Positions 12,460 through 59,794 are shown, counted from the stretch's first letter. The stretch is 64,000 nt of DNA from an uncultured archaeon (GCA_964410585.1 CAYPFW010000001.1:210853-274852), one strand, 5' to 3'. Notes: generated by a model not told the origin, from the sequence alone. A program made the numbers and translations.

Positions 12460-12471
12460 GTTTTGGCACAT

Positions 12472-24400: not shown

Positions 24401-24633
24401 TAAATGGATTTGACTTGAATGATTTAGTTTTGACAATAGGAAATGAAACTCTAACTGTGAATACAAACCAAGACGGATCAACAAGCACAACAAAAACATA
24501 CGACCCACTTGCAGCTGGACAATCAACATCTTTCTGGTGGAAATTAAACGCCGCATCTGGAACACATAATATTACAGCAAGAATTGGCAATGTTGGTGAT
24601 AGAGTCGAGATTTCAAGAATAGTGACTGTCTAA
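12472..24633 (+). CDS. Giant surface adhesin-like protein of about 4,053 aa. It has a signal anchor, N/S/T-rich repeats, several PKD-like domains (WNFGDG...NPTH), about 15 cadherin-like (dystroglycan-type / putative Ig) ~95-aa repeats, and five Ig-like repeats ending TETRT(L/F)xID. It also has a GSGGSGGGSGGSG linker and a C-terminal CARDB-like domain.
   Basis: A single 12.2-kb ORF. The track start is TTG at 12463, and the first ATG is at 12472. The repeat architecture was read directly from the translation. Confidence 0.9.
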   Translation: MSQKSNSSTRVAYIFLALLVFGLIAGAVAYPVQINISSNQAGFTTTTIVCGDPSCSSYTNSRQDIPTLTNSNGYSISGSGKVNYMELDYKACYLPHMYRLQMTDATTNGPYSVTRNFNQKSDCTSTVNTVQASNPSPFEKTTIQISTNVQGAVSFPKDANGNQFDFSMVSIPSDIKDFYDTKTKVVLKIKDSQGSVIYTSPEKEAYPLVNKSETVVFDYTPQIDGPFTAEIETQVTDCMCTSTQPITSSPVSFSVQDTDPVASFSFGTVIEGQDAQFTDTSTSNDGLTWEWNFGDGTALDTRQNPTHRFSKGGAHQVTLTVREADGDSNPKTQIVDVQNVNDNPIITATINPITLNEDFGTHEVVDLTTLESDEEDGPASDANNLRWSVVSVSDPSLIDVSIDVGSEKLSLVSKQDKFGTATVTLKLSDSQSGETTTSFNVQVNQQAETQGSTTTNTQVSADSVFTNSQGTNSNIQSSTVTGSTIIDSTVTNSNVQDSFIDPSTVSGSTIIRSRIVNSQVTNSNITDSNITNMQVSNAVVTNNVLQSGTIVYNGQTYTGSISLAEIQNTAPVSTQTVTQISWNEDSSDSSLNLNTQFSDPEGQTLSFSKTDPSNIQVSISANGQVTFTPDTNFNGQRSAQFTATDIFGKTVSISVTLNVISQNDQLSITTTAPTTGSQGLLYTYDIDASDIDGDQLTFTLQAGAPTGMTINPSTGLIQWTPTNNQVGNNQVTVLVSDGSTPIQQQFTISVSNANDAPSLSAISNQNIAEDSTLQFNVSADDPDLVYGDSLTYSINDSRFTITKISNTLATVSFSPTNSEVGTISVSVTVKDSQDLTITKTFSVLVSNTNDLPVLADVSNQNVLEDSTLQFNLTASDDDLIHGDSLTYTVNDSRFTVNKISNTLATVSFSPINSDVGTFSVQATVTDSSGQTSKKTFTVTVVNTNDAPTVTVLEPNGGELWNGIRQIKWTASDVDVGDILLVDIFTSVDGQVFQVLAENETNDGEFDWNTDQSSDSTNHKVRIEIKDGTTTVSDDSDSAFSLDNSVPNTVFASPNAGNYTSHQNITVTATDPNLQTISIYVNGLLASSSSTSPLVYLLTDGNHSVYAKANDTLGNSVQTETRNIFIDSVVPSVSFISPTPSTGLFANQNQTINITGTDNNLASVGITFVGEGSGGSGGGSGGSGASVGVSVNPGETTKTLSTTLSDGNYTYFGTARDILENNAQTETRTLFIDTINPTIQFENPTPANLATTNSNQIINVSGSDTNLVSIEIFVDGTLKNTCTSNLCSYSIDVSQLSDGPHTFNATIIDIVGSKTSTETRTLVVDKTAPSIQFVSPTPSDLSGVSGTKIINVTASDLSAFNIVIYIDGQNVTTCSSSLCSFEWNTTTFADGSHSINATSSDNVGNQNSTETRTFTIDNTAPSISLVSPANDTLSNSQTQNFIFAASDAIYTSVSCNLYINNNLSGSNSSVQSGVNTTITNTSVPEGTNTWYVQCADALGNTNTSEMRTLKTDYTSPQISSHSFSGLFPLTGVSDGGYFSPANTDGQFDSVSLTVNTSEEVIFGPQSIQIVNSSGQVVNSFDGPGETSRSILRTWFGNDSVGNILPDGEYTINITFTDLAGNTKTEILKNLEAVNDLFIIDNTPVNVILGNDRTVNEGALQTFDGSNSTDTGSEINTSSFVWNFGDSQSATGQTANHTYSQNGTYTVRLNVTDNVGNTGTNTIVVTVNDLAPTSSFTFSPSTGIFENTTTVQFNSTSTGYDTPLTYFWDFGDLSTSTQENPTHVFANNGTYTVNLTVTDADGSTNTSSQTLNILDNSPTANAGPDQTVNEGSIVFFDGSNSTSSPDSISSYFWDFGDGTNSTGQSVNHTYVNNNTYTVTLTVTDSDGSTNSDTLQVAVNDLGPTANFTWSPEPQDEDLPVQFNDTSTFVADNIVSWSWNFGDGSPINTTQNPTHVYGNQNTTRIFQVTLTIIDSDGSISSKSSNITINAVNDPPVVSTIPSIIFNEDSFNDSLVLSSFVSDVDNSVSEINWSSSPTQNLTISIDNTTKRLNVSAAPNWFGNETIVLTATDGQNQTQSNTITVIANSVNDAPVISTTAQTSATEDSLYSYDVNATDVESDTLLFTLESAPSGMTIDSSTGIISWTPNNTQVGSNNVSVQVSDGNSGIGEQNFTIVVANNAPIISNPGTQSATEDSQFSIDINSTDENEGLVFSLISPPSGMSINSTTGLISWTPTNTQVGTTTLNVSVDDAHGGTATTTFDINAGNNPTTITTNATTTATEDTLYTYDVNSTDEGQGDFFNLTTFPQGMTIDNSTGLISWTPLNNQVGSNNVEVEVDDGKGGSDTQAFSISVSNNPPLIATTALTSSTEDSLYEYDVNSTDEGQGLVYSLTTSPSGMTINQTTGMITWTPINSQVGINSVTVLANDTKSGTTTQSYSLIVSNNPPVFTSTAPTTATEDSEYLYDANSTDEGDGATFSLTTSPAGMTINSTTGLVNWTPLNNQVGSNSVVIRVNDGKGGQKSQSFSISVSNNPPTITSSAALNATEDSLYTYDVNSTDDGQGTITYSLALSPSGMTIDSSTGLISWTPLNNQVGTNNVSVQVSDGNSGVGEQNFTITVSNTNPTISSTASTTATENIQYTYDVNSTDDGQGTISYSLLSSVFGMSINQSTGLISWTPINTQVGPNNVSIQVSDGNGGTDTQNFTIVVANSNPTITSSPVVSVTEDSLYTYDVNSDEDGEGAISYLLLLLPSGMSINSTTGVITWTPTNEYVGPNNVSVQVSDGNGGVGEQNFTIVVANNPPIISDPGIQSATEDSLFTIDINSTDEGQGLLFYLESAPTGMTINETTGSVSWTPLNNQVGLNTVNVSVNDWQGGVSSLTFDINVLNNAPLITTNATISGVEDSLYTYDVNSTDEGQGATYNLTTFPQGMTIDNSTGLISWTPLNNQVGSNNVEVEVDDGNGGTNTQTFSISVSNTNDNPVLSTIPTQNTTEDVLYQFNVTASDDDLIHGDSLTYSVNDSRFSISKINNTLASLNFTPTNSDVGSFVVQVNVTDTQSVTDAKTFIVNVANVNDAPEFNSSTSLANVTFNEDGSTSLSLSQSFFDIDAGDSLTYSASAVDNISVSINQTTGVATLVPNQDFFGTRTVTFKATDSQGANSTDSNTVTITVNPVNDAPVLSASVTDVSFNEDGSNSSLDLSNFFTDVDNTTLVYTADPVANLTMNIVGSQVNISADPNFNGQRNVTFTASDGEYNVSDTVLVTVNPVNDAPTSTTIPDQNITEDTNFTFDISQYFSDVDADSLTFSIILNSTNISASINGSIVTLEPNSNFFGTNTIQFRASDSQLSVDSNTVTLNVSAVNDAPTVLVTQPNGGEIWNQNQNITWSASDVENDPLSVSIFASNDSGSTWNQIDTGLANSGLYIWNTTSIADGSYLINVTVSDGSLTTSDLSDGLVTVDNTAPDVNVALTGHNNLFIATLSNGPYDILNMTFTSSEPVIWKTPSGGNGINIYTSNGSLEKSFTSNSLSQTLFKQIDSSTFSGDDDIYTINVTTTDQAGNSQTQTVGNFTIDNTPPSVSISASSTTINEGESIFFNGSSTTDSSAGVDASSFVWNFGDSQSATGQTTNHTYSQNGTYTVRLNVTDNVGNTGTNTIVVTVNDLAPTSSFTFSPSTGIFENTTTVQFNSTSTGYDTPLTYFWDFGDLSTSTQENPTHVFANNGTYTVNLTVTDADGSTNTSSQTVSVSDTGPSVSISGTASTFVASTASYSASGSTGSDQPFTYEWDFNYTGSFDSEQNTGTTSSVDHTFSSTGTFTIAVRVTDSDGSQNISSMSTTVQPEQTHDIVVNSVTYNKADSTVYIGDQVTVSASVSNIGNFNESVTLRLFNGGTIDTETVSITKGETKTVNFTWTPSSESGGTILRVEALPVSGETQLGDNLATVQGSPIPVRSVVQNVNLTFVSATNFPKPSSSGSETQNPFFVWVKIENLNGFDLNDLVLTIGNETLTVNTNQDGSTSTTKTYDPLAAGQSTSFWWKLNAASGTHNITARIGNVGDRVEISRIVTV
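17499..17893 (+). repeat. Intragenic near-identical ~395-nt repeat, copy 1 (PKD-like segment).
   Basis: About 99% identical to 23270..23668. Confidence 0.85.
19375..19480 (+). repeat. Intragenic ~105-nt near-identical repeat, copy 1 (cadherin-like unit, FPQGMTIDNSTGLISWTPLNNQVGSNNVEVEVDDG).
   Basis: Near-identical to 21235..21340. Confidence 0.8.
21235..21340 (+). repeat. Intragenic ~105-nt near-identical repeat, copy 2.
   Basis: See copy 1. Confidence 0.8.
23270..23668 (+). repeat. Intragenic near-identical ~395-nt repeat, copy 2.
   Basis: See copy 1. Confidence 0.85.
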
Positions 24634-44405: not shown

Positions 44406-45848
44406 ATGATAAGAACATTCAGAAACTACGCGAGAAGTTTTGGAGCTGCAGTAGCTATAGGAGCAGCAGCTCTTGGTTTAAGTTGGTTTTTGGATTCAGC
44501 TGAGCCGACGGTCATCAAAAGATACACAGAAAATGGAAGGGAAGTCACGCTTTTTGATTATGACGGGAATTTGTCGACAGTAGAGGAAAGAGTGACGAGA
44601 GGAAGATTTCCAGCTTTTGGATCTGAACCTCCTTTTGGTGGATATACAGAAAAAAAAGAATTTGAACCTCCAGTAGAAAGAGATGGAAAAAAAGTGAATA
44701 CAGAAGTCAGTTTTTATGATCCAAGTGGCAGACGAGTTGAAGGCCCAATAAGGACTTTGGAACCGAGAGAAGGCGGGCTTGAAACACCTGAAGAAAAACA
44801 AGAGGCTGCAGAAGAGCCAGCATATTTGGCAGAAATAAGAAGCTATTTTGAAGTAATAGAAAGGCTCACAGAGACTGGAGTTGTGGATGATGTCAGTCAT
44901 CTGTATCACTATGTAAGCAACCAAAAACATTTTCCAGATGTGAAAGACATGGATATAGAAGTGGATCAGATACCTTCCTTTTATCCAGTAGGACTTTTTG
45001 GATCTAGAAGTAGTTATGTTGTATTCAAGTATAGAAATAGTTCAACTACGCAGGAAGCTGGTCTACCTGAAGAAGTTGAAATAACTGTCAGTACATCAGA
45101 TACAATTAAACCTAAAAATGAGGTCAGCTTTAGCTTGTTAATTGGAGGCAAGAAATTGGTCTCTTTCAGTGATGGATTTGATATTAATGATAATAGATAC
45201 AAGACAGTTTTCATAGCAACTGACACAATACAAACTTCTTCTTTCGACATAGACGGAGAAGATCTTATATGCAAAAATAGCAGCAATGATTTTGATCTCC
45301 GTGGTGAAAAAATTCCAATAGGCACAAGGATAGATGGAAGTAAAGTTTTGAGAGCAGTTGAGCATTTCGGGGAACAGGCAACAAAAGTAGAGGATATGTT
45401 TTATGCTAGCCTTGCAAGGAAAGTAAGGGACTATGTGGTTAGAAAGAATAATAGGAATTTCAGTCCTGAATACTATATGGATAGTTTCGAAGATGGTTAT
45501 ATACTCTTAAGCGTTCACACAACATCAGGAGTGTTACTTTTACAAGATCGTCGTGGAATTTTTGACACTGATGAACTACATGGAAAACCAACTTATCTAG
45601 AAGGTGGAAGAAAAATGATTATAGAAGGAAAAACAGTCAATAAAAATGATGGAATGACGCAATTTAATAGAGACGGAACAGTAACTTTTACACCTATTAA
45701 GAAACCTTTGGTAGCTCCGGACAATGATGTAGATGGGAGAATAACTGGTGTAGATGAAAAAGTAGAAGGTGATCATATTCTTAACATGAATACAGAGCAA
45801 TACAGAAAATTGCTGCTCGAGTTAGACGAAAAGATAGGAGATGAATGA
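44406..45848 (+). CDS. Signal-anchored 481-aa protein with an N-terminus M-IRTFRNYARSFGAAVAIGAAALGLS.
   Basis: The track start is GTG at 44400 and the ATG is at 44406. Confidence 0.55.
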   Translation: MIRTFRNYARSFGAAVAIGAAALGLSWFLDSAEPTVIKRYTENGREVTLFDYDGNLSTVEERVTRGRFPAFGSEPPFGGYTEKKEFEPPVERDGKKVNTEVSFYDPSGRRVEGPIRTLEPREGGLETPEEKQEAAEEPAYLAEIRSYFEVIERLTETGVVDDVSHLYHYVSNQKHFPDVKDMDIEVDQIPSFYPVGLFGSRSSYVVFKYRNSSTTQEAGLPEEVEITVSTSDTIKPKNEVSFSLLIGGKKLVSFSDGFDINDNRYKTVFIATDTIQTSSFDIDGEDLICKNSSNDFDLRGEKIPIGTRIDGSKVLRAVEHFGEQATKVEDMFYASLARKVRDYVVRKNNRNFSPEYYMDSFEDGYILLSVHTTSGVLLLQDRRGIFDTDELHGKPTYLEGGRKMIIEGKTVNKNDGMTQFNRDGTVTFTPIKKPLVAPDNDVDGRITGVDEKVEGDHILNMNTEQYRKLLLELDEKIGDE

Positions 45849-46648
45849 CAAGAAAATTCATGGACTACGCGAGAAGTTTAGGCGGTAGATTATTTTTAGG
45901 TTCAGCTGCACTGTGTTTAGGGCTAGCTGTAGCCCAACCAATCAGAAACGCTGTAAGAAATTGGGGATCAGAAGATTTTGTAGGAAACATCATAGAATAT
46001 GTTTCCAGCAAGTTCCATGAGAGGAGAGACGGAACATTTTATCTGCATTGTGATTTTCCAGGAAAACGTGTTGACATTTCTATTAAAATTGAAAATGGAA
46101 GACCACTAAGATATCTCAATATAGAAAACAGTGATTTTGTTAGCCAAAACGGAACAAGTACTTTGTACAATAAAAGACCTGGTTTTGAGGACGTCAATGG
46201 AAATGGAAGACTAGAGAATGGAGACAACGTAACATGGGTTTATTACCAAGAAAATGGTTATGATAAAGTGCTTGAGGAAGCAGATAAAGCATACAGAGAC
46301 CAATTGAAAGACTTGAATACAAGGGTACAAGAACTTAAACATTTGGACAAGTTGACAGAGGCCATACAAGAGGATGTTATTGAAACAGGAAAACCTGAAT
46401 TTGTTTCAGATGTTTCAGTATTTCCCAAAGTTCCTTTGCTTTCATTTTTTACAAAAAGGTCTGGGAACAATTTCCACAAAACATACACCCTAGGAGACGG
46501 TTCACGAGCGTCTTTTTTTGTTAGTCTTTATGATAACATCCCAAAACTGTTAATTGATGATTCACAAAACACTTCAATCCTCCCAAGATACCAAGATATG
46601 GAAATTATGGAAAGAGTGGTAAAAGAAGCTGGTCTAAAAATTGATTAG
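45845..46648 (+). CDS. Signal-anchored 267-aa protein with an N-terminus paralogous to the previous gene (MTRKFMDYARSLGG...).
   Basis: ATGA overlap with the upstream stop. The 5' ends of the two genes are about 80% identical over 34 nt. Confidence 0.55.
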   Translation: MTRKFMDYARSLGGRLFLGSAALCLGLAVAQPIRNAVRNWGSEDFVGNIIEYVSSKFHERRDGTFYLHCDFPGKRVDISIKIENGRPLRYLNIENSDFVSQNGTSTLYNKRPGFEDVNGNGRLENGDNVTWVYYQENGYDKVLEEADKAYRDQLKDLNTRVQELKHLDKLTEAIQEDVIETGKPEFVSDVSVFPKVPLLSFFTKRSGNNFHKTYTLGDGSRASFFVSLYDNIPKLLIDDSQNTSILPRYQDMEIMERVVKEAGLKID

Positions 46649-48846: not shown

Positions 48847-49617
48847 ATGATAAACATCAAACCAATATACGTCGGCATAGATTTGCACGGCACTTTGCTG
48901 AACAAAAATGAAGAAATAGAAGAAAGATTTCATAGGCCTCTTGAGGATGCCTTGAAAAAACTGAAAACAAAAGCCAAAATCTATGTTTGTTCTGGGAATG
49001 ATTTGCCTTTTGTGAAAGAGGTTTTACCGAAAGATATATTTGAGCTGTTTGATGGTTTTGTGTTGGAAACTGGATGTGTTTTTTCTGATGGGAAAACCGA
49101 GGTTGTAAAAACTCCAGAAAGCGTGCAACAGAAAGCCCATGAATTAAGGAAGGAATTGGAACAGAAGGGGTTCTCAGAAGTCAACGAGTTTAGACGAAGG
49201 CTGACAACTGTTTCTTTGTTTTGTTCAAGCCCAAAAGAGTTTGTTAAAAAAGTAGAAGGGTTTGTGCAAAAATCAGTATACAGAAACGATTTTTCTGTAA
49301 CATATTCAAGCGTGGCTGTTGATGTGATTCCAAAAGGATGGGACAAGTTCATGGGTATGCAAAAACTGGCAGGAGAAAACACCATAATTGGGATTGCAGA
49401 TTCGATGAATGATTTTGAATTTTTGGCTAAATCGGATTTTTCGTTTGTTCCAGCCAACGCGCCGAAAGAGGTTTTGGAGAAGTTGGAAAAGGAAAGGAAG
49501 AGTATTGTTAATTTGGAAAAAATGAATCAATTAGAAAAAAACATTATCGGAAAGGCCAAAAACCAAGAGACTGAAGGAGTGTTGGAGATATTGGATTTTA
49601 TCCAAACAGCGATTTAA
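48847..49617 (+). CDS. HAD-superfamily hydrolase, Cof/IIB-like.
   Basis: Motif I GIDLHGTLL, with the second Asp replaced by His; motif IV GIADSMND. Confidence 0.55.
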   Translation: MINIKPIYVGIDLHGTLLNKNEEIEERFHRPLEDALKKLKTKAKIYVCSGNDLPFVKEVLPKDIFELFDGFVLETGCVFSDGKTEVVKTPESVQQKAHELRKELEQKGFSEVNEFRRRLTTVSLFCSSPKEFVKKVEGFVQKSVYRNDFSVTYSSVAVDVIPKGWDKFMGMQKLAGENTIIGIADSMNDFEFLAKSDFSFVPANAPKEVLEKLEKERKSIVNLEKMNQLEKNIIGKAKNQETEGVLEILDFIQTAI

Positions 49618-51070
49618 AAATTCCTCTGGCTATTAGGCCTGCTGTTGTTGGTGTAACATCTTCACCATTTACATAAATTTTAGAACCTTCTCTACATGCC
49701 CCTATTGTATCTATACCACTTCTAACATACACAACAGCGCGCCTGATGCCACCAACTGTACCATAAACATGTCCGTCAACTCTTAGCTCACTTTTTGGAT
49801 CTGAATCAGTTGAGTGAAATGGACCAACTCCAAGTATATTTCCTCTAAGATCTCCACCTATTTCACAAGTAAAATGTCCTTGATGATGATGTTTTGCAAC
49901 ATCTCCCCTAACACTTCCTCTAACTATAATTTTTGTTCCATAACTGCCCTGACTACTAACAACATCGCCTACAACATCGCCATCAACTATAATTTGACAG
50001 TTTCTACAATCATACTCTACAAGACCTTCCACATTTCCCCTAACTCTTGTTGTGCCTCCCTGTTGCCCAAATCCCACCAATGCTCTTTCTGATGCACTTC
50101 CTATAACTATGTCTCCACCTTTCATTCCAGTTCCAACTTGACTATTCAAAACGCGGCCTCTGACATCTACAAGACCTCCTGATTTTCCATATCCTATTAA
50201 AGTGTGTGAAACATCTTTGTGAAATATGGTTTCCCCTCCAGATTGGTGAGCGGCTAACCCCTCTTCAGAAAGGCTCGGGAAATCACAAAAAACTTCTATC
50301 TTCCCCCCTTCCTGCCAACCACCGAAAGTGTTTTGGAAACCATCACATGCATACGTTGAATAGAGGCTATCTTTAAACCGATAGACAACGGCATGCCCGT
50401 CTTTCATGCGGTGTAGTATTAACAAAGGTACAGGTCCTTTGAACTCTATTGTGCCGCCTTCCAAATGACCTCCAGACCAATTACCTACTTCTCCTTCGAA
50501 AATAACTTTGGCTCCTTTTTTAAGATGCTGTGCACAGCCATCGCCAACATTACCCTTTACAATAACTGTGCTGTTCCTCAAAAAAGAGCAAACATTTGAC
50601 GGGCGTCCATATTCTCTGGCTCCATTCCAATCAGTATCATAAAGAAGTTCATATCCACATTCTTTTTCTGAAAGTATTCCAGATGAAATATCGGCATCAA
50701 AAGACTGCTTACTAGGTGTTGCATCTAAAACTATTTCTTGTCCTGGCTTAAGTTTGCTATCTAGAAGAGCAGAAAACTGAACACCCAATGCACTCTTGCC
50801 GCCAAGCCAATATCTTCTTCTAAAGTATCTTGAAAGATGTTCAGGAGAACATCTTATGTCCGAAACAGCATCTTTTGTTTCCCTATATACTTCTTCAGGG
50901 TCTTCTCCAGACGATTTTTCGAAAGCTTGATTTATTTGGTCTTCTACATAAGCAAAATGTGAATCCTCTGTTACAGGAACAACCACTCGACCAGAATCTT
51001 TTCTTCTTTGGCGCGCTTTTTCCTCAACTTTTTTTATTTCGTCTTCACTTACATCAAAATCATTTTTCAT
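49598..51070 (-). CDS. GXGXG-motif beta-helix protein, paralogue 1 (GltB C-terminal domain / FwdC-like repeats), with a ~170-aa N-terminal domain.
   Basis: Repeats GNVGDGCAQHLKKGAKVIFEGEVGNWSGGHLEGGTIEF fit the GxGD..G...M.GG.I.V.G.AG pattern. Confidence 0.6.
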   Translation of the reverse strand: MKNDFDVSEDEIKKVEEKARQRRKDSGRVVVPVTEDSHFAYVEDQINQAFEKSSGEDPEEVYRETKDAVSDIRCSPEHLSRYFRRRYWLGGKSALGVQFSALLDSKLKPGQEIVLDATPSKQSFDADISSGILSEKECGYELLYDTDWNGAREYGRPSNVCSFLRNSTVIVKGNVGDGCAQHLKKGAKVIFEGEVGNWSGGHLEGGTIEFKGPVPLLILHRMKDGHAVVYRFKDSLYSTYACDGFQNTFGGWQEGGKIEVFCDFPSLSEEGLAAHQSGGETIFHKDVSHTLIGYGKSGGLVDVRGRVLNSQVGTGMKGGDIVIGSASERALVGFGQQGGTTRVRGNVEGLVEYDCRNCQIIVDGDVVGDVVSSQGSYGTKIIVRGSVRGDVAKHHHQGHFTCEIGGDLRGNILGVGPFHSTDSDPKSELRVDGHVYGTVGGIRRAVVYVRSGIDTIGACREGSKIYVNGEDVTPTTAGLIARGIFKSLFG

Positions 51071-51080
51071 ATTTATAGCA

Positions 51081-52469
51081 TCAGTCTCCCAATAATTTTT
51101 TAAAAATTCCTCTGGCTATTAGGTTTGCAGTTGTTGGTGTAACATCTCCTCCGTTTTCATAAACTCTACAACCTTCGCTACATTTTTCTAGCCTCTCTAT
51201 TTTTCTCCCAACATGGACATCGGCCCAATTCAAATAGCCAACTGTTCCATAAACAGATTTGTGAACTGTTATCTGGCTTTTTGGACCAGATGAACTACCA
51301 TATCCTACATATTGTATGTTTCCTGTTACATTGCCTTCGATTGTACATGTTATATATTTCGAACCGCGACCGACATCGCCTTTAACATTTCCGTGGACAG
51401 TTATATCCACACCATTGTCCCCTCTTCCACCAACATTTCCAGTTACATCACCACCAACAATTATTGTACAACCAGAGCTGCCTTCGCTTATATTAGCTCT
51501 TGCACTGCCTTTAACATGAATTGTTCCACCAAGTGTTCTTTCTCCAACAATTCCTTCTTGAACACTTCCCAAAACTATTTCTCCACCAGTCATTTTATAA
51601 CCTATTTTACATCTAATAGCTCTTTTCACACTGATGTCTCCATACTCCTTGTTAGGCCCTATACTACAGTCAGTTACCGTCCCATGAAAATTAATTTCTC
51701 CTCCTTTCTGACATGCTCCGATAGAACTACTCTGGGTTAACATAGAAACATCGCACATGACATCTATTTTACCTTCTTCCTGATTTGCACCAAATGAGGA
51801 ATATGGATATGGTTCATTCTTAAATTGATGAACTATTGCGTGACCATCTTTCATGCCTTTAAGTATATCGGTTTCTGCAGGGCCCCTAAATTCTATTTCT
51901 CCTCCATCTAAAAAATTGCCGGAATCCTTTTCAGATTCACCTTCAAAAATAACTTTTGCTCCTCGTTTGACGTGTTGGGCTGCACACTCTCCAGAATTTC
52001 CTTTTATTGTCACTGTTCCTCTTTCTAAAAAAGAGCAGACGTATTTGAGGCTATAAGGATCATTAATTGTCCTTGCATCTAAAAATATTTCTTCCCCCTC
52101 TCTAAGCATTCTATTAAGAAGAGATGAGAAAAAAATACCCAATTGACGAGAATCTGGGCCAGCGTCTGCTTTTCTTTTGAAATATCTTGACAATTCTTGA
52201 GATGGGAAATGTGGCAATGTAGAAACACATCTTCTTGCTCTTTCATACACGTCTTGTGATCCCCAATCACCAGATATTCTATCATCTAAACTATCTCTGC
52301 CTTCTATAAATCTTTTGAATGCTGAATCTATTTGATCTTCAATATAATCTAAGTGAGAATCGTCTGTTACTGGTTTGACAATTCGACCAGATTGTGTCCT
52401 TTTATCACGTGCTTTTCCAATAACATCTTCTATTTCATCCTTTGTGACATCAAAATCAGAATTCGTCAT
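51081..52469 (-). CDS. GXGXG-motif beta-helix protein, paralogue 2.
   Basis: Start at MTNSDFDV (52469), which makes an ATGA overlap with the upstream stop. The track ORF extends to 52553 (MENKCATCGG...). Confidence 0.6.
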   Translation of the reverse strand: MTNSDFDVTKDEIEDVIGKARDKRTQSGRIVKPVTDDSHLDYIEDQIDSAFKRFIEGRDSLDDRISGDWGSQDVYERARRCVSTLPHFPSQELSRYFKRKADAGPDSRQLGIFFSSLLNRMLREGEEIFLDARTINDPYSLKYVCSFLERGTVTIKGNSGECAAQHVKRGAKVIFEGESEKDSGNFLDGGEIEFRGPAETDILKGMKDGHAIVHQFKNEPYPYSSFGANQEEGKIDVMCDVSMLTQSSSIGACQKGGEINFHGTVTDCSIGPNKEYGDISVKRAIRCKIGYKMTGGEIVLGSVQEGIVGERTLGGTIHVKGSARANISEGSSGCTIIVGGDVTGNVGGRGDNGVDITVHGNVKGDVGRGSKYITCTIEGNVTGNIQYVGYGSSSGPKSQITVHKSVYGTVGYLNWADVHVGRKIERLEKCSEGCRVYENGGDVTPTTANLIARGIFKKLLGD

Positions 52470-53422
52470 CCTTGGAGTTTCCAGACGACCTTGCCGCCTG
52501 CCTTTGTTATAGCCTCTGTTATTTCCCCCGCACGTTGCACACTTATTTTCCATTTAATTTCATCATAAGCAGACCTATACGAAGATGGGCTCAAAACAGG
52601 ATGAGCCTTCCTCAAAAACAAGCGCACCTCATCTTGATTAACGTCTGAAAAAGCGGCTTCTTCTCTTCTAGATGCTTCAAGTTCTCCAGATGTTTGTGCA
52701 AGTTGTGCGGCCACCCTTGGTTGTAAATCTCTTTCTAGAAGAACATACACTTTTGCAAGTGTAATTTTTGCAACATGTTTTTCTGGAAGCGATAAATTGT
52801 GTGGTTCTTTTGCCTTATCTAAAATAGCTGGGAGAAGGGTTCTTGTTCTATCGATTCTTGCAGGCAAAGTTATGCCTTCTTGAACTAATCTTTGAACTTC
52901 AACACTAGCTGTCATGTCTGCCGAATAATCATTTTTAAGCCTTGCAACTTCATGTGGTGAATGGCTTCTGTCAGATTGTATGTTGGCATCCAAATCACCG
53001 ATTAAATCCAACATTGCTTCTTTGTTGTCTGCAATGTATTGTTTAGCATCTAACCAATGCTGTCTTTTGTCTTCTAATTCTTTAGCTTTTTTGCCTGCTC
53101 TAAAACAACCATAAAATCTTCTAATTTTTCCTGGATCAAAGTAAGAAGCTATGCGATTTATTTCAGGGTTCGAAGAAAATTGTGCAATCGCTGCAAAACC
53201 TCCGACTATTTGAACTGTGAGCTCTAGATATCTTTCCATATCTCTTTCTGGATCTAATCGATCTGCTTCATCGATATACACTTGAATATGCGCGTGGCAG
53301 TGTTCATTTAGAAGGGCGAAAAACCCGTTGCCGTCGACACCACCGGCTGTTCTTGCTTGCTCTAATCTTTTCCTCAATGCCTCTCCTTCATTTCTGACTC
53401 TTCTGTATACATCTTCTTCCAT
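52466..53422 (-). CDS. Hypothetical alpha-helical protein of about 318 aa.
   Basis: The track ORF runs to 53494. The start MEEDVYRRV at 53422 avoids overlapping the upstream gene. Confidence 0.45.
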   Translation of the reverse strand: MEEDVYRRVRNEGEALRKRLEQARTAGGVDGNGFFALLNEHCHAHIQVYIDEADRLDPERDMERYLELTVQIVGGFAAIAQFSSNPEINRIASYFDPGKIRRFYGCFRAGKKAKELEDKRQHWLDAKQYIADNKEAMLDLIGDLDANIQSDRSHSPHEVARLKNDYSADMTASVEVQRLVQEGITLPARIDRTRTLLPAILDKAKEPHNLSLPEKHVAKITLAKVYVLLERDLQPRVAAQLAQTSGELEASRREEAAFSDVNQDEVRLFLRKAHPVLSPSSYRSAYDEIKWKISVQRAGEITEAITKAGGKVVWKLQG

Positions 53423-53423
53423 C

Positions 53424-54143
53424 TTATTCTCCCGCCACTTTTCTAAATTTAGGTGGATCATCAAGGTATGGACAAACATCTTTTGGGTGGACACCTATTA
53501 CTCGGGTTTTAATAAGATACCAGCTTGTATAAGCAGGACATCCTGTGTCTTTCAAATCTTCCCAACTGACAAATTTGAAAGGAAACCATCTATCTTTCCT
53601 TCTCTTATCTGCTATCATTGCCGTTCTACACCTGCTTTTTGTCGAATCGTCTTGAAGCGTTCTGATTTCTAATACATTAGCTGGGCCGCCGCTTCTAAAT
53701 GTACAATTACCTAATGTTTGATATTGTAGATGTGACTGTGGTGCGCTATCAGCTGGTTTTGATGACTGCTGGCCTTTTACAAACTCAAGATCTTTTGATA
53801 AATCTGCAAGCTTTCTCTGCATATCAGACATTTGTCCATCGTATTGTCCAGATCTTTCTCGCATTGCATCCTTAAGACCAGAAAATTCTTGCCTTAAACC
53901 TTCAATGGAAGCATATAATCTTTCTTCAAACGCCCTTTGTCTAGCTTCTCTTTTTGCTTCTGCTACTGCATCTTCTCTTGATCGGCAATACTCAATAACA
54001 ACATCAACACGAACGTAAACATTAACTCTTTCGTCTTCAACATCTAATCCAGCACCTCTCATTTCAGATGTTAAATCAGCAGGCAATCTATTAATCCACT
54101 CCCTTGCTTCGCCTTCAGACTTTATTTCACGATAGTTTACCAT
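53424..54143 (-). CDS. Hypothetical 239-aa protein with a central coiled coil.
   Basis: ORF track; first gene of the GC-richer operon. Confidence 0.45.
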   Translation of the reverse strand: MVNYREIKSEGEAREWINRLPADLTSEMRGAGLDVEDERVNVYVRVDVVIEYCRSREDAVAEAKREARQRAFEERLYASIEGLRQEFSGLKDAMRERSGQYDGQMSDMQRKLADLSKDLEFVKGQQSSKPADSAPQSHLQYQTLGNCTFRSGGPANVLEIRTLQDDSTKSRCRTAMIADKRRKDRWFPFKFVSWEDLKDTGCPAYTSWYLIKTRVIGVHPKDVCPYLDDPPKFRKVAGE

Positions 54144-54461
54144 AGAAACAATAAACTATTTATCTTCAAGATTTATAAGAACAATTGGTATCCTAAACAT
54201 AAGGTTTGTTAAGTCTCTTTTTTTTTGCCATGTTCGATAGAAAATATCGAATTTTGTATCTTTTTTAGAATCTGCTTTACTAAAACAAGTAAATATTCAA
54301 ACATATACTCTAAAATATGTTTTCTAGATTTTATGCTTTGTTGAAAACCAATATATAGAAGACCAAATTCTTGTGAAATTCTCTATTCAAGAGAATCAAA
54401 CTAATTTATTTTAGAAAATATATTGAAACAAGTATAATAGAAAATATTTAATTTGATAGTT

Positions 54462-54492
54462 CTTTTTTAATATATATTATATAGAATATATC
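54462..54492 (+). repeat. Left copy of an imperfect direct repeat, TTTTAATATATATTATATAGAATATA.
   Basis: Matches 59284..59312 at about 26 of 28 positions. Confidence 0.45.
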
Positions 54493-54604
54493 ATCTAAAA
54501 ATTTGTCAGACATTTCCAAAACACTAAAAATAAATTCACTCCAAGTAGATTCTGAATAGAATAGACAATTGAACATAGAAAATTTCAGAACATTTACTGG
54601 GTAA

Positions 54605-54931
54605 TTAAAGAGAACAAGAATATTTACCTATTAATTCGCTTGGACAATCTCCTCTTCTAAGAACATCAAGCAATTCATCCATCTCACTTTGTTCAAGCAC
54701 GTATCCTGGAGAAATATTACGCAATTCTGTGCCTATTTGCACGATTACACTATAACATCTTATCGGAAAACCACTTTCGTTTTTTGCGAAATAAACACTT
54801 GCTCTCACTCTTCTTCCACAAATATTACTTGAAAAAGGACCTGCTTCAGCGAAAAAATCTTCTCGACTAAATCTCCTTACCATCCCAGAATTTGGGGAAG
54901 CTCTTTTATTAAGTTTTAGCCTGTCTTGCAA
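54605..54931 (-). CDS. Hypothetical 108-aa protein.
   Basis: ORF track only. Confidence 0.3.
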   Translation of the reverse strand: MQDRLKLNKRASPNSGMVRRFSREDFFAEAGPFSSNICGRRVRASVYFAKNESGFPIRCYSVIVQIGTELRNISPGYVLEQSEMDELLDVLRRGDCPSELIGKYSCSL

Positions 54932-55403
54932 TCTCAGCAGCTATTTGATCATCGAAGTCCTTGGCTATTCTTTTTGTGCGCCGCACATGTGCATTAATTT
55001 GTGACTGGGCTCTGTCGACTAGTTGGTTAATCGTCGGAGAGGCAAGGGAATAGCCTTTCATAAATTGGTCTGGAGTATCTCTGACTGGGATTTTGATAAA
55101 CTCTAGAAGCCCCAAAGTCCGCCATTTGCGGATTTCCTCGTATGATTGGGAAACAGAGACTTCGAGGATTTTGGCTATTGTTTCGATTGTCAAGGGTGTA
55201 TTTGTTTTTCTAGAATGCAAAAGGAACTTCAAAAGCGCAGCATGATTTGCTCGACTTTGCTTTCTTTGGAGACCTAGCCTTTGCACAATTACCTCAGCCA
55301 TGTCGTCTATTGAAAGAGAGAGCTTGTAGTCTGGAGGATTGACCTCTTTTAAGACGATGTCTGCCAACTTTTTATACATATAGAGAACCAATGTCTCTCT
55401 CAA
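54909..55403 (-). CDS. Putative HTH DNA-binding protein of 164 aa.
   Basis: TIETIAKILEVSVSQSYEEIRKW segment. Confidence 0.4.
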   Translation of the reverse strand: MRETLVLYMYKKLADIVLKEVNPPDYKLSLSIDDMAEVIVQRLGLQRKQSRANHAALLKFLLHSRKTNTPLTIETIAKILEVSVSQSYEEIRKWRTLGLLEFIKIPVRDTPDQFMKGYSLASPTINQLVDRAQSQINAHVRRTKRIAKDFDDQIAAEIARQAKT

Positions 55404-55873
55404 CCTCCTTTCCTTTCATCATATTTCCTCCTGATGTTTACCCATATAGGAACAGCAAAAAGCATAGTAAGTATTATCATCGGCACATAGAATACAGGCT
55501 CATTAAACCTGTTCAAAGAGAAAGGTATCAATATTAAAACAAGTGCAATGTAAATGACTATCCACAATAATATTTCATATAGAGGGTTTCCTTTAAGTTT
55601 CTTTCTATTAGAAGAATACCTTCCTATAACCCCTGCTAAAAACAGGAAAACAATGGCCAGTAAGAACATTGAAACACTTGGATATTTGGATACATAATCA
55701 TATATCCTGGGAGCTGATTTGTATATAATCCCCAATATAAGGATTATAAAAATTGCCAACATAAGGTTTGGTCTACGGGTTTTCCAACTTTTATACAAGG
55801 AAAATTTTCGCATTAAATTTCCCCGTTTTTTATAGAAAGAGGCCTCTTTTTTTGATAAACCTTTTTTTTTCAT
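55400..55873 (-). CDS. Membrane protein with four transmembrane segments.
   Basis: Hydrophobicity; ATGA overlap with the neighbouring gene. Confidence 0.45.
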   Translation of the reverse strand: MKKKGLSKKEASFYKKRGNLMRKFSLYKSWKTRRPNLMLAIFIILILGIIYKSAPRIYDYVSKYPSVSMFLLAIVFLFLAGVIGRYSSNRKKLKGNPLYEILLWIVIYIALVLILIPFSLNRFNEPVFYVPMIILTMLFAVPIWVNIRRKYDERKGG

Positions 55874-55879
55874 ATAATC

Positions 55880-56932
55880 TCACACTATTGAAGTTTTCAA
55901 AAACTCCACAAGATCGGGTTGTATATAATTGTTTACTGTTACTGCTATATGCTCTTTCCAAATGTTTTCTTTTTTCACAAATTTTTTATGACCCAAATCA
56001 GAAGCAATTGAAAGAAAAAGAGAATTCACTTGCTCTTTTGTTGGTTTTTTTGTCCTTTTTATAAAATCCTTGACTTGAGAAGTTGCGTAGTGAGACCTTA
56101 CTATATGTGGATAGAACTCTTTTCCACAATACTTTTTGAAGGCTTTTTTGAAATGAGACTCTTTCATCGGATGACCATTTTCGCCGACAAAAACAAAAGA
56201 GTCTCTGTTGAGCGGTTTTAGTAGGGAATTCAGCCTTTTAGCATAAACTTCAGGAAATTGTTTTGTCGTTTTTATTGGGACCCCATCTTTCCCTATAAAA
56301 TCAAAAGTGACATTGTTCCCATTTATTGAAATGTCTTTTTTCTTGAGAGTTGTCAAGCCTTTGTGACCATGTGCCTTATAGTAAATTTCATTTCCAACTC
56401 TTATGTGTGTTTGGAGGAGAGTATACATTGGCAAAGCAAATCTGTCTTTCTCATCTTTAAGTGCTTTTTCGACTCTTTTTTTCAACCTTGGATATTCCTT
56501 TTCAAACTCCTCAACTTTTTTGTATTTTTTGTCTTTGTTTGCTTTTCTTTTTTCTAAAGTGTATACATAGGAAAATGTACCGCCTTTGTTTTGATATAGG
56601 ACATCCCAGTGATCGTGTGTTTGCTGATCGTGGATTGTCAAGTGAGGGGCAAAAAGGGAGAAAGCCTTGTCTAAAACACTTCCGTCAGGGAGTATGTTTA
56701 TTCTAGCCCCTTGAGGAAGACCTTCTGGGGAAAGTTGGCCCTTTAGAAAGAAGGAATCTTTTTTGTCTACTAAATCCTTAAACCTGCCATTTTTTTGGAA
56801 GAGATGAATTACAATCATCGCTTCTGGGAGGGGTTTATTTGATCCTTTCCATCCTGTTAGTGTTTTTTCTACAACTGACATATCTTTCCTTATTCTGATT
56901 GTGCCAACTGGTATTGGTTTTTCTTTTTTCAT
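55880..56932 (-). CDS. Type IB DNA topoisomerase (poxvirus/bacterial-size, 350 aa).
   Basis: The sequence carries RVGNE, GLTTLKKKDI...FDFIGKDGV, HIVRSHYAT, DLGHKK and VNNYIQP. These match the TopIB catalytic pentad R-K-R-H-Y and vaccinia GLLTLKNKHI...FVGKDKV. Confidence 0.75.
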   Translation of the reverse strand: MKKEKPIPVGTIRIRKDMSVVEKTLTGWKGSNKPLPEAMIVIHLFQKNGRFKDLVDKKDSFFLKGQLSPEGLPQGARINILPDGSVLDKAFSLFAPHLTIHDQQTHDHWDVLYQNKGGTFSYVYTLEKRKANKDKKYKKVEEFEKEYPRLKKRVEKALKDEKDRFALPMYTLLQTHIRVGNEIYYKAHGHKGLTTLKKKDISINGNNVTFDFIGKDGVPIKTTKQFPEVYAKRLNSLLKPLNRDSFVFVGENGHPMKESHFKKAFKKYCGKEFYPHIVRSHYATSQVKDFIKRTKKPTKEQVNSLFLSIASDLGHKKFVKKENIWKEHIAVTVNNYIQPDLVEFLKTSIV

Positions 56933-56956
56933 CTAAAACCCTTCTTACAATTGAGT

Positions 56957-57130
56957 TTAACAGTCAAATTTTTCACCACATTTTACGCATTCTATTTCTA
57001 CTGGCCCTCTGCGTAAACCAAAAATATAATTAATTTCTTTTTTCTTTGCTCTCTTCTCCAATTCTTCATTTCGAAAGCACCCTGAATCTATTACTGGTAT
57101 TTTACACTTTGGACAATTTTTGTTTTTCAT
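56957..57130 (-). CDS. Zinc-ribbon protein of about 57 aa (CPKC...CVKC); coordinates approximate.
   Basis: Hand translation MKNKNCPKCKIPVID...ECVKCGEKFDC. The ATG directly abuts the stop of the upstream zinc-ribbon gene. Confidence 0.35.
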   Translation of the reverse strand: MKNKNCPKCKIPVIDSGCFRNEELEKRAKKKEINYIFGLRRGPVEIECVKCGEKFDC

Positions 57131-57469
57131 CTAAAACTCCTTTTCACAGCTTTTACAGTGCCATTTTGGGTAGTACTCTACAACTTTACAACCCCCAAAT
57201 TCCACTTTTCCTTCTTTTTTTAGTAATTCGGCTTCTTTTGAAGGCAAACCATATAGTATTGGAATCACATCAAAGGATTCGCACTTTGGACACTTTTCAT
57301 GTGGCTCATAATAGCCTTCTTTTCCAACAGGTGTTCTAAACTCCTTAAAACACCTCCAACACATCCACCAATTGTAGTTATAAAAATCTTCTTTGAAAGT
57401 ATTTTTTGGTACGTTGTCTGTTTTTACTTTATCTGTCTTTTTACATTCAGGGCAAGCCTCTTTTTTCAT
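57131..57469 (-). CDS. Double zinc-ribbon protein of 112 aa with four CxxC pairs.
   Basis: ORF track; CPEC, CWRC, CPKC, CKSC. Confidence 0.45.
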   Translation of the reverse strand: MKKEACPECKKTDKVKTDNVPKNTFKEDFYNYNWWMCWRCFKEFRTPVGKEGYYEPHEKCPKCESFDVIPILYGLPSKEAELLKKEGKVEFGGCKVVEYYPKWHCKSCEKEF

Positions 57470-57777
57470 CAGACAAACTCGCCCTCCTTTATGCGTTTTT
57501 CCAATTGAGCCAAAACCTTTTCATATTCTTTTTCCAAGTCGACTTTGTAGTGTTCAGAAAGCATGTAAAAATCAAATAAAATATCACAAAGGGAATCGAC
57601 TAAATCTGCTTTTTGGCGCCCTTTGTTTTTGAAGCCTTCTTTGACTAGAACTGCATTTGAGAGCTCGCCTACTTCTTCTGCGAGGTCAACAACCATTGCT
57701 TCTGGTGTCCATTTTCTAAGTCTCACCTTTTCAAACTGCTTCAAAAGTTCCTTTGTTTTTAGTTGCATTTTGTCCAT
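57469..57777 (-). CDS. MazG-like nucleoside triphosphate pyrophosphohydrolase domain protein.
   Basis: LAEEVGEL motif; helical, about 100 aa. Confidence 0.5.
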   Translation of the reverse strand: MDKMQLKTKELLKQFEKVRLRKWTPEAMVVDLAEEVGELSNAVLVKEGFKNKGRQKADLVDSLCDILFDFYMLSEHYKVDLEKEYEKVLAQLEKRIKEGEFV

Positions 57778-58749: not shown

Positions 58750-59079
58750 CTAAGAAGGCTGAGTTTCCTTTCCAGCTTTCTTTTTTTGCTTTTCTAAATT
58801 GTCCTCAAGTTGCTGGAATTTTTTCATGATTGCTTCGAGGTTGTGGGCGACGTCCCAACCATCGTCTGTAAGTCTCACTTTTTTGATCCTACCTGTTTTT
58901 TCGAACTCAACAAGACCCAATTTTTTCAAAGTATTGAGGATTTTTATTGTATGAGAATAGGTGCAGTCTGCTTCTTTTGAAAGAATTGTCGCGTAAATGG
59001 CTTCTTCTTTTCGCGTTTTTAGGCCTAAGAAAATCTTCGCCGGCTTTTCTCTCAAAAACAATTCGTCCAATAATGTCAT
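58750..59079 (-). CDS. Winged-helix transcriptional regulator of 109 aa.
   Basis: CTYSHTIKILNTLKKLGLVE HTH followed by a wing; GGGAGG ribosome-binding site. Confidence 0.5.
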   Translation of the reverse strand: MTLLDELFLREKPAKIFLGLKTRKEEAIYATILSKEADCTYSHTIKILNTLKKLGLVEFEKTGRIKKVRLTDDGWDVAHNLEAIMKKFQQLEDNLEKQKKKAGKETQPS

Positions 59080-59283
59080 TTTGAGCCTCCCTATCTCGAT
59101 TAAGAATTTACTTGTAGTAGAGTGTCAACTCTCACTTTCTGTAAAACTATTGGTTCGTTGGTTTAAATACTTTATTGTATGTTTCTTGATAGGTACTTTC
59201 TATTATATGTTTTTAATTATATTTGTTTATTTAGTCATATTAGATAATAGCTTATCTATTATATTTTTTATAATATATTTGTT

Positions 59284-59312
59284 TTAATATATATTCTTTA
59301 GAATATAATAAT
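59284..59312 (+). repeat. Right copy of the imperfect direct repeat, TTTTAATATATATTCTTTAGAATATA.
   Basis: See the left copy at 54462..54492. Confidence 0.45.
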
Positions 59313-59794
59313 TTTAAAATTTTTGAAAGTGAGGGTTCTATGTGTATATAACAGTGTTATATATATGACCAATAGGTTTGGGGTGAAAAGTGAGAGTAAA
59401 AGGGAGAGTAAATTTGAGCATTTCAAATGACAAAAAGTAGCACCGATAATCCCCACGATAAAAGTGAGTATATTTTTCAAAGGTGAGAGTTAAAACAAAT
59501 AAAGACGATCTAGATACTAAACAAAACCAACAATATATATGAAAGGGAATATTAGTTTGAAGTGAGAATTGTATTTAAACTTGATCGCAAAACTAGAATG
59601 TCGGTTTTTAAGGTCTTGAAAGTATACAGAGGAAAAGTGGAGTTTAGCAAAAATAGTTAGGAAATTGAACCAGTATACAATAAATGTACATAGATTCCCT
59701 CCCTAAAGTGAGGGAACAGTTAGTATGCACTCATCCTTAATGCGATACAAAAATTAAAATCAACAAATACCTATTATTAAAAACAAATAATAGT

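Follow-up and report, generated by a model that had tools for sequence, protein, structure and literature searches.

A conserved archaeal gene module pairing FwdC-related beta-helix proteins with two orphan families: candidate components of a membrane-peripheral scaffold

Among beta-helical proteins, FwdC (subunit C of formylmethanofuran dehydrogenase) and the GXGXG domain, found at the C-terminus of the large subunit of glutamate synthase, are structural, non-catalytic parts of larger enzymes, and bactofilins (PF04519) are polymer-forming cytoskeletal proteins with a membrane-targeting peptide. DPANN archaea, which have tiny genomes, carry a large share of genes without known function, and the literature yielded nothing on GXGXG proteins in DPANN or on beta-helix proteins of Woesearchaeota. 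Here we describe a four-gene operon (49598-54143, minus strand) in a 64,000-nucleotide stretch of DNA from an uncultured archaeon (GCA_964410585.1, CAYPFW010000001.1:210853-274852), referred to below as the window, to which the coordinates refer unless a locus is named. The operon encodes two orphan proteins, g4 and g3, followed by two paralogous beta-helix proteins, B and A, and had been singled out in an earlier note made from the sequence alone. Our follow-up suggests that the beta-helices are remote relatives of FwdC, that the operon represents a rare, conserved archaeal module and that its products may act together as a membrane-peripheral scaffold.

Two beta-helix paralogues in a tightly coupled operon

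The operon consists of four consecutive, co-oriented open reading frames (ORFs) on the minus strand, encoding g4 (53424-54143, 239 amino acids (aa)), g3 (52466-53422, 318 aa), B (51081-52469, 462 aa) and A (49598-51070, 490 aa). As read directly from the sequence, a single nucleotide at 53423 separates the g4 stop from the g3 start (TAA-G-ATG), the g3 stop overlaps the B start as ATGA (52466-52469) and B and A are spaced by 10 nt, bearing out the earlier description of four tightly coupled genes with an overlap and a 1-nt gap. All four genes were reproduced by independent gene calls on three further assemblies from this organism, one of which extended g3 by 13 codons (331 aa), and the family alignment and the gene calls concur on the B start at 52469. 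The operon appears self-contained, because an AT-rich gap of 460 nt (54144-54604) separates it from the next upstream ORF and a convergent HAD hydrolase gene (48847-49617), which overlaps the last 20 nt of A, lies downstream. The upstream gap, in a region with a GC content of 0.307 across 54001-55000, is the probable promoter region of the operon (minus strand), judging from its length, its AT-richness and the repeat boxes within it; bacterial promoter and terminator models, also applied, are uninformative for an archaeal host. AT-rich boxes are common to the intergenic sequences at 54237-54490, upstream of the operon, and 59240-59321, upstream of a winged helix-turn-helix (wHTH) gene (58750-59079). 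One pair of boxes (54444-54490 and 59261-59307) shares 79% identity and another (54416-54446 and 59194-59224) is inverted, and the boxes may be shared promoter or regulator sites.

A and B are paralogous over their full length (42% identity, E = 4e-108), and the N-terminal motif quoted in the earlier note is present in both, consistent with its description of tandem paralogues that join a conserved N-domain to a beta-helix. Modelling of A in AlphaFold2 (AF2) with a 15-sequence family alignment gave a mean predicted local distance difference test score (pLDDT) of 84.4 and a predicted template modelling score of 0.81. Residues 1-118 (50717-51070, minus strand) are predicted to form an N-domain of five helices (residues 9-25, 35-51, 58-68, 76-87 and 93-106) that carries the motifs R..VT.(E/D)(E/S)H..YV and LG(I/V).FSAL and is alignable across the family; its profile has no match in the PDB or Pfam. 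At ~115 aa, this domain is shorter than the ~170 aa previously assigned to it, the residues that follow (121-153; 50612-50710, minus strand) being an A-specific insertion that is predicted to be disordered (pLDDT <50) and is missing from B and from every other family member in the alignment. The beta-helix occupies residues ~160-470 (49661-50593, minus strand) with a period of ~20 residues and strands mostly above pLDDT 90, and is followed by a predicted terminal helix at residues 476-489 (pLDDT 64-72). No transmembrane segment or signal peptide was found in A, B, g3 or g4, the highest 19-residue Kyte-Doolittle mean in the four proteins being 1.18, compared to 2.86 in a neighbouring membrane protein. 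Nearly every column that is invariant in the family holds Gly, Val or Ile, the exceptions being Q253, Q276, C402 and T473, a pattern that suggests maintenance of a fold rather than an active site.

The assignment of the beta-helix as a remote homologue of FwdC and the GXGXG domain is well supported by profile comparisons, and holds at superfamily level only. The NCBIfam model of FwdC (TIGR03122) matched both A (E = 1.6e-13, 50.5 bits) and B (E = 1.1e-12, 47.8 bits) under its cutoff of 130.65 bits, while the Pfam GXGXG model (PF01493, cutoff 32.5 bits) scored B at 18.4 bits, did not match A and hit three of 15 family members at E values no better than 7e-5. All curated GXGXG and FwdC thresholds are thus missed by A and B. 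A profile built from A and B retrieved FwdC from the PDB (7bkb_I, E = 5e-8; 5t5i_C, E = 2.6e-6), and hhalign aligned the family with a FwdC-like protein, P0056, at 98.6% probability (E = 5.9e-16) over residues 44-336, a span that takes in part of the N-terminal helical region. The weaker matches of the exhaustive profile search described below pass the PF01493 or TIGR03122 thresholds and are genuine members of those families. In a Foldseek search of the PDB, FwdC chains were placed near the top with a probability of ~1.0 and target-normalised TM-scores of 0.41-0.45, but with E values above 0.01, and no match at all reached E = 0.001. The literal G-x-G-x-G motif has no occurrence in A or B; the repeat unit is instead h-x-G-x-h-x-G-x-h with a period of ~19-20 residues, present in five copies in A and three in B. 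The earlier reading of these repeats as the GXGXG type of glutamate synthase and FwdC therefore stands as a statement of homology between profiles, and fails as regards the literal motif and the curated cutoffs.

No FwdA, FwdB, FwdD or glutamate synthase catalytic domain was detected in the 28 neighbouring or large ORFs of the window that were scanned or in the related loci, in line with the earlier note, which had reported no such partners nearby and regarded the function as open. Identity with bactofilins, which had been raised as a possible outcome, was rejected, since A and B do not match PF04519 and a single family member of 15 does so at E = 0.0043; no characterised enzyme family was found for the N-domain either. 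As a side observation, P0056 and similar proteins pass the NCBI threshold for FwdC, yet have extra helices at the N-terminus that are related to the A/B N-domain. Such proteins may have been misnamed as FwdC and could represent an intermediate family.

Both paralogues end in a short tail on the minus strand, DVTPTTAGLIARGIFKSLFG in A (49601-49660), made up of a DVT motif and an amphipathic helix, and DVTPTTANLIARGIFKKLLGD in B (51084-51146), delimited by alignment with A and by comparison of the family tails. In most of the 16 family members compared, the tail combines amphipathicity with a basic character. Across these members, its hydrophobic moment (muH) is 0.46-1.08, which ranks no lower than the 86th percentile among all 11-mers of the same protein, and its net charge is 0 to +6. 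The A tail is the most hydrophobic 19-mer of its protein, yet remains under the transmembrane threshold. Taken together, the AF2 model and the muH values suggest that the tails of the A/B family form a short terminal helix with one hydrophobic and one basic face.

The coding sequence of this tail contains a tract of 48 nt (49613-49660 in A and 51099-51146 in B, minus strand) that is identical at 45 positions (94%), in register, and is the highest-scoring 48-nt window of the A/B codon alignment (mean 0.58, standard deviation (sd) 0.11). It had previously been placed at 49598-49650 and 51097-51150, including the stop codon and ~8 nt of the 3' flank, and taken as a sign of recent gene conversion or duplication. 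Neither the extent nor the age can be maintained: the tract ends 4-5 codons ahead of the stops, which differ (TAA and TGA), the 3' flanks are unrelated, and the same codon is used at 112 of the 212 identical residues, compared to 101.6 expected from codon bias alone, indicating that synonymous sites are saturated and that the duplication is old. In the tract itself, A and B use the same codon at 13 of 14 positions, where ~6.4 were expected. After correction for codon bias and for the scanning of all windows, this synonymous excess has a P value of 0.067 in a scan statistic and 0.034 in a codon-specific likelihood scan, which is suggestive and falls short of establishing it. A short gene-conversion event is possible; protein constraint and codon bias would suffice, the tract encoding DVTPTTA.LIARGIFK, whose outline (DVT followed by an amphipathic helix) recurs across the family. 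A reading of the tract as an RNA element was rejected, given that no conserved fold was obtained (z scores of -1.4 and +0.6) and no Rfam family reached its gathering threshold in the 64-kb window.

Two orphan partners and the recurrence of the module

The first two genes encode members of orphan families, neither g4 nor g3 having a match in Pfam, NCBIfam, PHROGs, PADLOC or the PDB. g4 consists of a helical, coiled-coil-like N-terminal half and a C-terminal domain (53460-53705, minus strand) with four conserved cysteines (C147, C172, C202-P203 and C224). The cysteine columns vary little or not at all in the alignments of the family (C147 is invariant when three sequences are aligned, whereas with seven sequences one row is misaligned at this position), and a His is also conserved in most members; from these residues, the domain may bind a metal. 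The AF2 model of g4 contains long helices at residues 42-98 and 102-119 but is of poor quality as a whole (pLDDT 50), with values under 50 for the C-terminal domain. Both orphan proteins had been described as helical, and the modelling, which covered g4, agrees to the extent that helices are predicted in the first ~119 residues of that protein with pLDDT 50-78. In the g3 family, the Pfam model VPS28 gave weak matches in two of five members (best E = 0.011), which may be due to chance.

Relatives of the operon are rare. When A and the 15-member alignment were used to query 5.8 billion clusters by word-indexed search, essentially only A and B were returned, probably because Gly-rich words swamped the candidate list. 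An exhaustive profile search of 1.84 billion cluster representatives gave 175 matches with E <1e-3, of which only 18 had E <1e-10. The best full-length relatives (P0009-P0021; 407-585 aa, 24-33% identity to A) contain the N-domain (R..VT.EEH..YV and LGIF.SAL.N), the beta-helix and a C-terminal "G.DVT" with a short tail. P0008, from a closer relative of the host, is ~85% identical to A. A locus search with a five-member alignment retrieved one genome locus and one metagenome locus. The sole match in a GTDB genome belongs to a metagenome-assembled genome of Candidatus Woesearchaeota (L004), in which genes for proteins of 256, 306 and 494 aa, the last a beta-helix protein, are consecutive with overlapping ends. 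The 256-aa protein is a homologue of g4 (pairwise E = 9e-7), and the relationship between the 306-aa protein and g3, weak in pairwise comparison (E = 0.5), was settled by profiles.

Extension of the search with the two orphan families showed that they travel together. The g4-family alignment retrieved five further g4-like proteins, each with a g3-like gene directly after it on its contig, and a three-member g3 profile found a g3-like protein after the g4-like one in every locus (E = 3.5e-81 for L006-8 and 3.6e-15 for L010/11). The pair occurs in this order in loci from an ENA metagenome (L005/L009), from JGI (L006-8) and from NCBI (L010/11, GCA_004196315.1), in L012 and L013, and on one Logan contig for which DNA was lacking. 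The succession of a g4-like gene, a g3-like gene and at least one downstream gene thus recurs on at least five other lineages, and g3 always follows g4. The flanking genes vary from locus to locus and include Mur ligase/MraY, Pelota, a HerA-like ATPase and an antitoxin-like gene, the module of L010/11 adjoining a Pelota gene of archaeal type. Because the neighbours differ each time, the conserved unit is the module itself. None of its three families, namely the extended beta-helix, g4 with its four cysteines, and g3, is covered by a curated model in Pfam, NCBIfam, PHROGs or PADLOC, and a rare, conserved archaeal module outside the curated libraries is what this analysis adds.

The host is an archaeon, as the window encodes an MCM helicase and the archaeal membrane protein DUF373. 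These genes, together with a longest known contig of 600 kb and a single ORF of 4056 aa (12463-24633, plus strand), of the giant-protein type common in DPANN and Candidate Phyla Radiation genomes, suggest a host of DPANN type. Its genome is carried by the samples ERR4904390, ERR4904391 and ERR3478686, and the literature yielded nothing on the sample accessions.

Possible function and competing explanations

Combining these results, we tentatively favour the explanation that the four genes encode subunits of one non-enzymatic, membrane-peripheral scaffold assembly in a narrow group of DPANN-type archaea, a reading for which we infer complex formation, membrane binding and a lack of catalysis. 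Under this proposal, g4, with its coiled coil and four-cysteine domain, and g3 would be the invariant core of the module, and A and B would be rigid beta-helical rods ~7 nm long, probably sharing their origin with FwdC, a structural subunit, and with the C-terminal domain of glutamate synthase. The helical N-domain of each rod would probably dock onto the g4/g3 core, and the basic amphipathic C-terminal helix would probably make the rod lie along the inside of the cell membrane, so that the assembly may work in a manner analogous to bactofilins or to a MinD-type membrane tail, as a member of neither family.

A stoichiometric, non-enzymatic assembly appears the most likely of the explanations considered because of the structural nature of the relatives, the lack of any catalytic signature, and the translational coupling and conservation of the module. 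No catalytic domain or cofactor motif was detected in the four proteins in profile searches of Pfam, NCBIfam, PHROGs, PADLOC and the PDB, and such tight coupling is commonly seen for subunits that are produced in a fixed ratio. In a genome whose longest contig is 600 kb, a conserved module that spans 4.5 kb and is translationally coupled is unlikely to be dispensable. In addition, L009 encodes, in the same downstream position as A and B, a 448-aa protein that is not a beta-helix and ends in a transmembrane segment, which fits action at the membrane.

Several points weigh against this proposal. The complex is a postulated one, and the C-terminal helix could simply cap the end of the beta-helix; both rod ends may be capped, by the N-domain and the C-terminal helix, which would argue against end-to-end polymerisation of the bactofilin kind. 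The g4 model is unreliable, and its four conserved cysteines could equally be compatible with a redox cofactor. Furthermore, the 15-20 known family members make the conservation statistics thin, and the neighbourhoods, with Mur ligase/MraY, Pelota, HerA and HAD hydrolase genes, offer no consistent clue to function.

Variation at the third gene position is the basis of an alternative to which we give a modest chance, namely that g4 and g3 are an adaptor, chaperone or sorting pair for variable downstream clients recognised via a shared N-terminal region, of which the beta-helix proteins would be the commonest, comparable to polymorphic effector loci with dedicated helical partners. Indeed, the proteins encoded downstream differ in their bodies: beta-helices in the window, in L004 and in L009, a pure tetratricopeptide repeat (TPR) protein in L010, and the transmembrane-anchored 448-aa protein in L009. 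In the last locus, three tandem ORFs come after the g4/g3 pair (1669-4828 of L009), one of 72 aa, one for a 521-aa beta-helix protein (P0010) and one for the 448-aa protein. All three have a common TPR-like N-terminal leader of ~55 aa (E = 1e-6) and near-identical DNA around their start codons; the 72-aa ORF resembles a truncated copy. The third gene of L010 has the same leader as some beta-helix members (E = 2e-17 with P0018). In the three JGI loci, the gene after the g3-like one diverges from the L009 leader after ~24 codons and meets a stop after ~34 (11560-11766 of L006, 9519-9729 of L007 and 7925-8160 of L008), and these three independent assemblies all end there within 100-190 nt. Most contigs with a g4-like protein of this type are only 2-5 kb long, and the two observations together suggest repetitive, inserted or hypervariable DNA at that point. 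However, A and B lack the extra leader and have the family N-domain only, the C-terminal tail is conserved and not polymorphic, no toxin, enzyme or immunity-like domain was seen, and the scan of neighbouring genes revealed no recognisable secretion machinery.

It is quite improbable that the module encodes an unrecognised enzyme complex, in which the beta-helices would brace a catalytic g3 and/or g4, as happens in formylmethanofuran dehydrogenase or glutamate synthase, and the four g4 cysteines would coordinate a metal or an Fe-S cluster. The homology of the beta-helix with FwdC and the four cysteines of g4, with the His conserved in most members, are what such an explanation would call upon. 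The spacing of these cysteines (x24, x29 and x21) is, however, unlike the usual ferredoxin or zinc-ribbon patterns, neither g3 nor g4 matches a catalytic or cofactor-binding family, no Fwd or glutamate synthase partner lies among the neighbouring genes scanned, and the host genome, judging from its longest contig, is apparently strongly reduced.

The elevated GC content of the operon had been noted as a hint of horizontal acquisition. The elevation itself is real: at 0.394, compared to a window mean of 0.368 (sd 0.013), the block is the highest 4.5-kb stretch of the window. The inference drawn from it does not hold, as the excess lies at the first and second codon positions (GC1 0.49-0.56, GC2 0.39-0.43) because the proteins are rich in glycine (13-14% of A and B), and the low GC content at the third position (GC3), 0.22-0.27 in the operon and 0.23-0.42 in 12 neighbouring genes, gives no signal of transfer. 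Contigs with related modules from other genomes have the same GC content (0.361 and 0.365). Moreover, no att-like or flanking direct repeat was found in the window, except for the AT-rich promoter-like boxes, and ARAGORN detected no tRNA gene in it. Neither the beta-helix nor the g4 profile retrieved a relative from IMG/VR, and GenBank phages and PLSDB plasmids yielded none either; PHROGs and PADLOC gave no family match, and no fold match in BFVD was significant. Beta-helices are common in viral fibres, and the operon adjoins a small gene of TopoIB/tyrosine-recombinase type, wHTH proteins, a zinc-ribbon protein and a MazG gene, but it is very improbable that A and B are horizontally acquired, tailspike- or fibre-like cargo of a virus or mobile element, given the native-like or lower GC3, the failure to find att-like repeats, tRNA genes or viral and plasmid relatives, the recurrence of the module in unrelated contexts without a recombinase, and the 460-nt gap between the operon and the recombinase-side genes.

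The recombinase-like gene (55880-56932, minus strand) encodes a 350-aa protein with a TopoIB catalytic core of eukaryotic/poxvirus type (Pfam, E = 7.8e-18) and a weak match to phage integrases. It is flanked (54605-57777) by genes for a wHTH protein (Csa3-like, E = 5e-6), a small membrane protein, a zinc-ribbon protein and a MazG pyrophosphohydrolase, and this neighbourhood could be the remnant of an integrated element, although att repeats and tRNA genes were looked for and none was found. Elsewhere in the window, the 5' ends of two adjacent genes (44406-44480 and 45845-45919, plus strand), which encode tandem paralogues of 482 and 267 aa, are 73% identical in DNA and specify similar N-terminal peptides resembling signal or anchor sequences.

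Comparison with MinD-type tails, bactofilins and FwdC

Should the proposal of a membrane scaffold be correct, the module would represent a new type of archaeal structural system, in which a structural subunit of an enzyme was turned into a free-standing architectural protein. Independently of this, two misreadings are corrected here, namely that of the GC excess as horizontal transfer and that of the conserved 3' end as recent gene conversion.

As in MinD- and FtsA-type proteins, the extreme C-terminus of A and B is a short, basic, amphipathic helix (GLIARGIFKSLFG and NLIARGIFKKLLGD), which by eye resembles the tail of E. coli MinD (...KGFLKRLFGG). The hydrophobic moment of the A and B tails is 0.54-0.59, compared to 0.38 for this MinD peptide. 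In contrast to MinD and FtsA, A and B have no ATPase domain and share no homology with these proteins, and membrane binding is for A and B a putative property.

With bactofilins, A and B would share a mode of action as soluble, non-enzymatic beta-helical rods with a short terminal amphipathic membrane peptide. They differ in being non-homologous and much larger, in carrying the amphipathic peptide at the C-terminus, and in having rod ends that seem to be capped, by the N-domain and the C-terminal helix, making polymerisation doubtful. A bolder version of the scaffold proposal, to which we assign a small chance, would see in the module a new cytoskeleton-like or membrane-scaffold system of DPANN-type archaea that arose as an independent analogue of bactofilins, with rods of the FwdC lineage, recruited from the structural subunit of an enzyme of C1 metabolism, two lineage-specific partners that assemble them and a MinD-like amphipathic tail as membrane anchor.

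A third comparison is that with FwdC and the GXGXG domain, with which A and B share profile homology, a coil period of ~20 residues, glycine-rich coils and the lack of evident catalytic residues. The differences are nevertheless considerable: A and B score far under the curated cutoffs and lack the literal motif, their beta-helix extends over ~300 aa compared to the 190 positions of the PF01493 model, and, unlike FwdC, the family occurs in non-methanogenic archaea with small genomes. In place of Fwd or glutamate synthase partners, A and B are linked to two orphan proteins, and to their beta-helix are added a helical N-domain of ~115 aa and a conserved amphipathic C-terminal tail.

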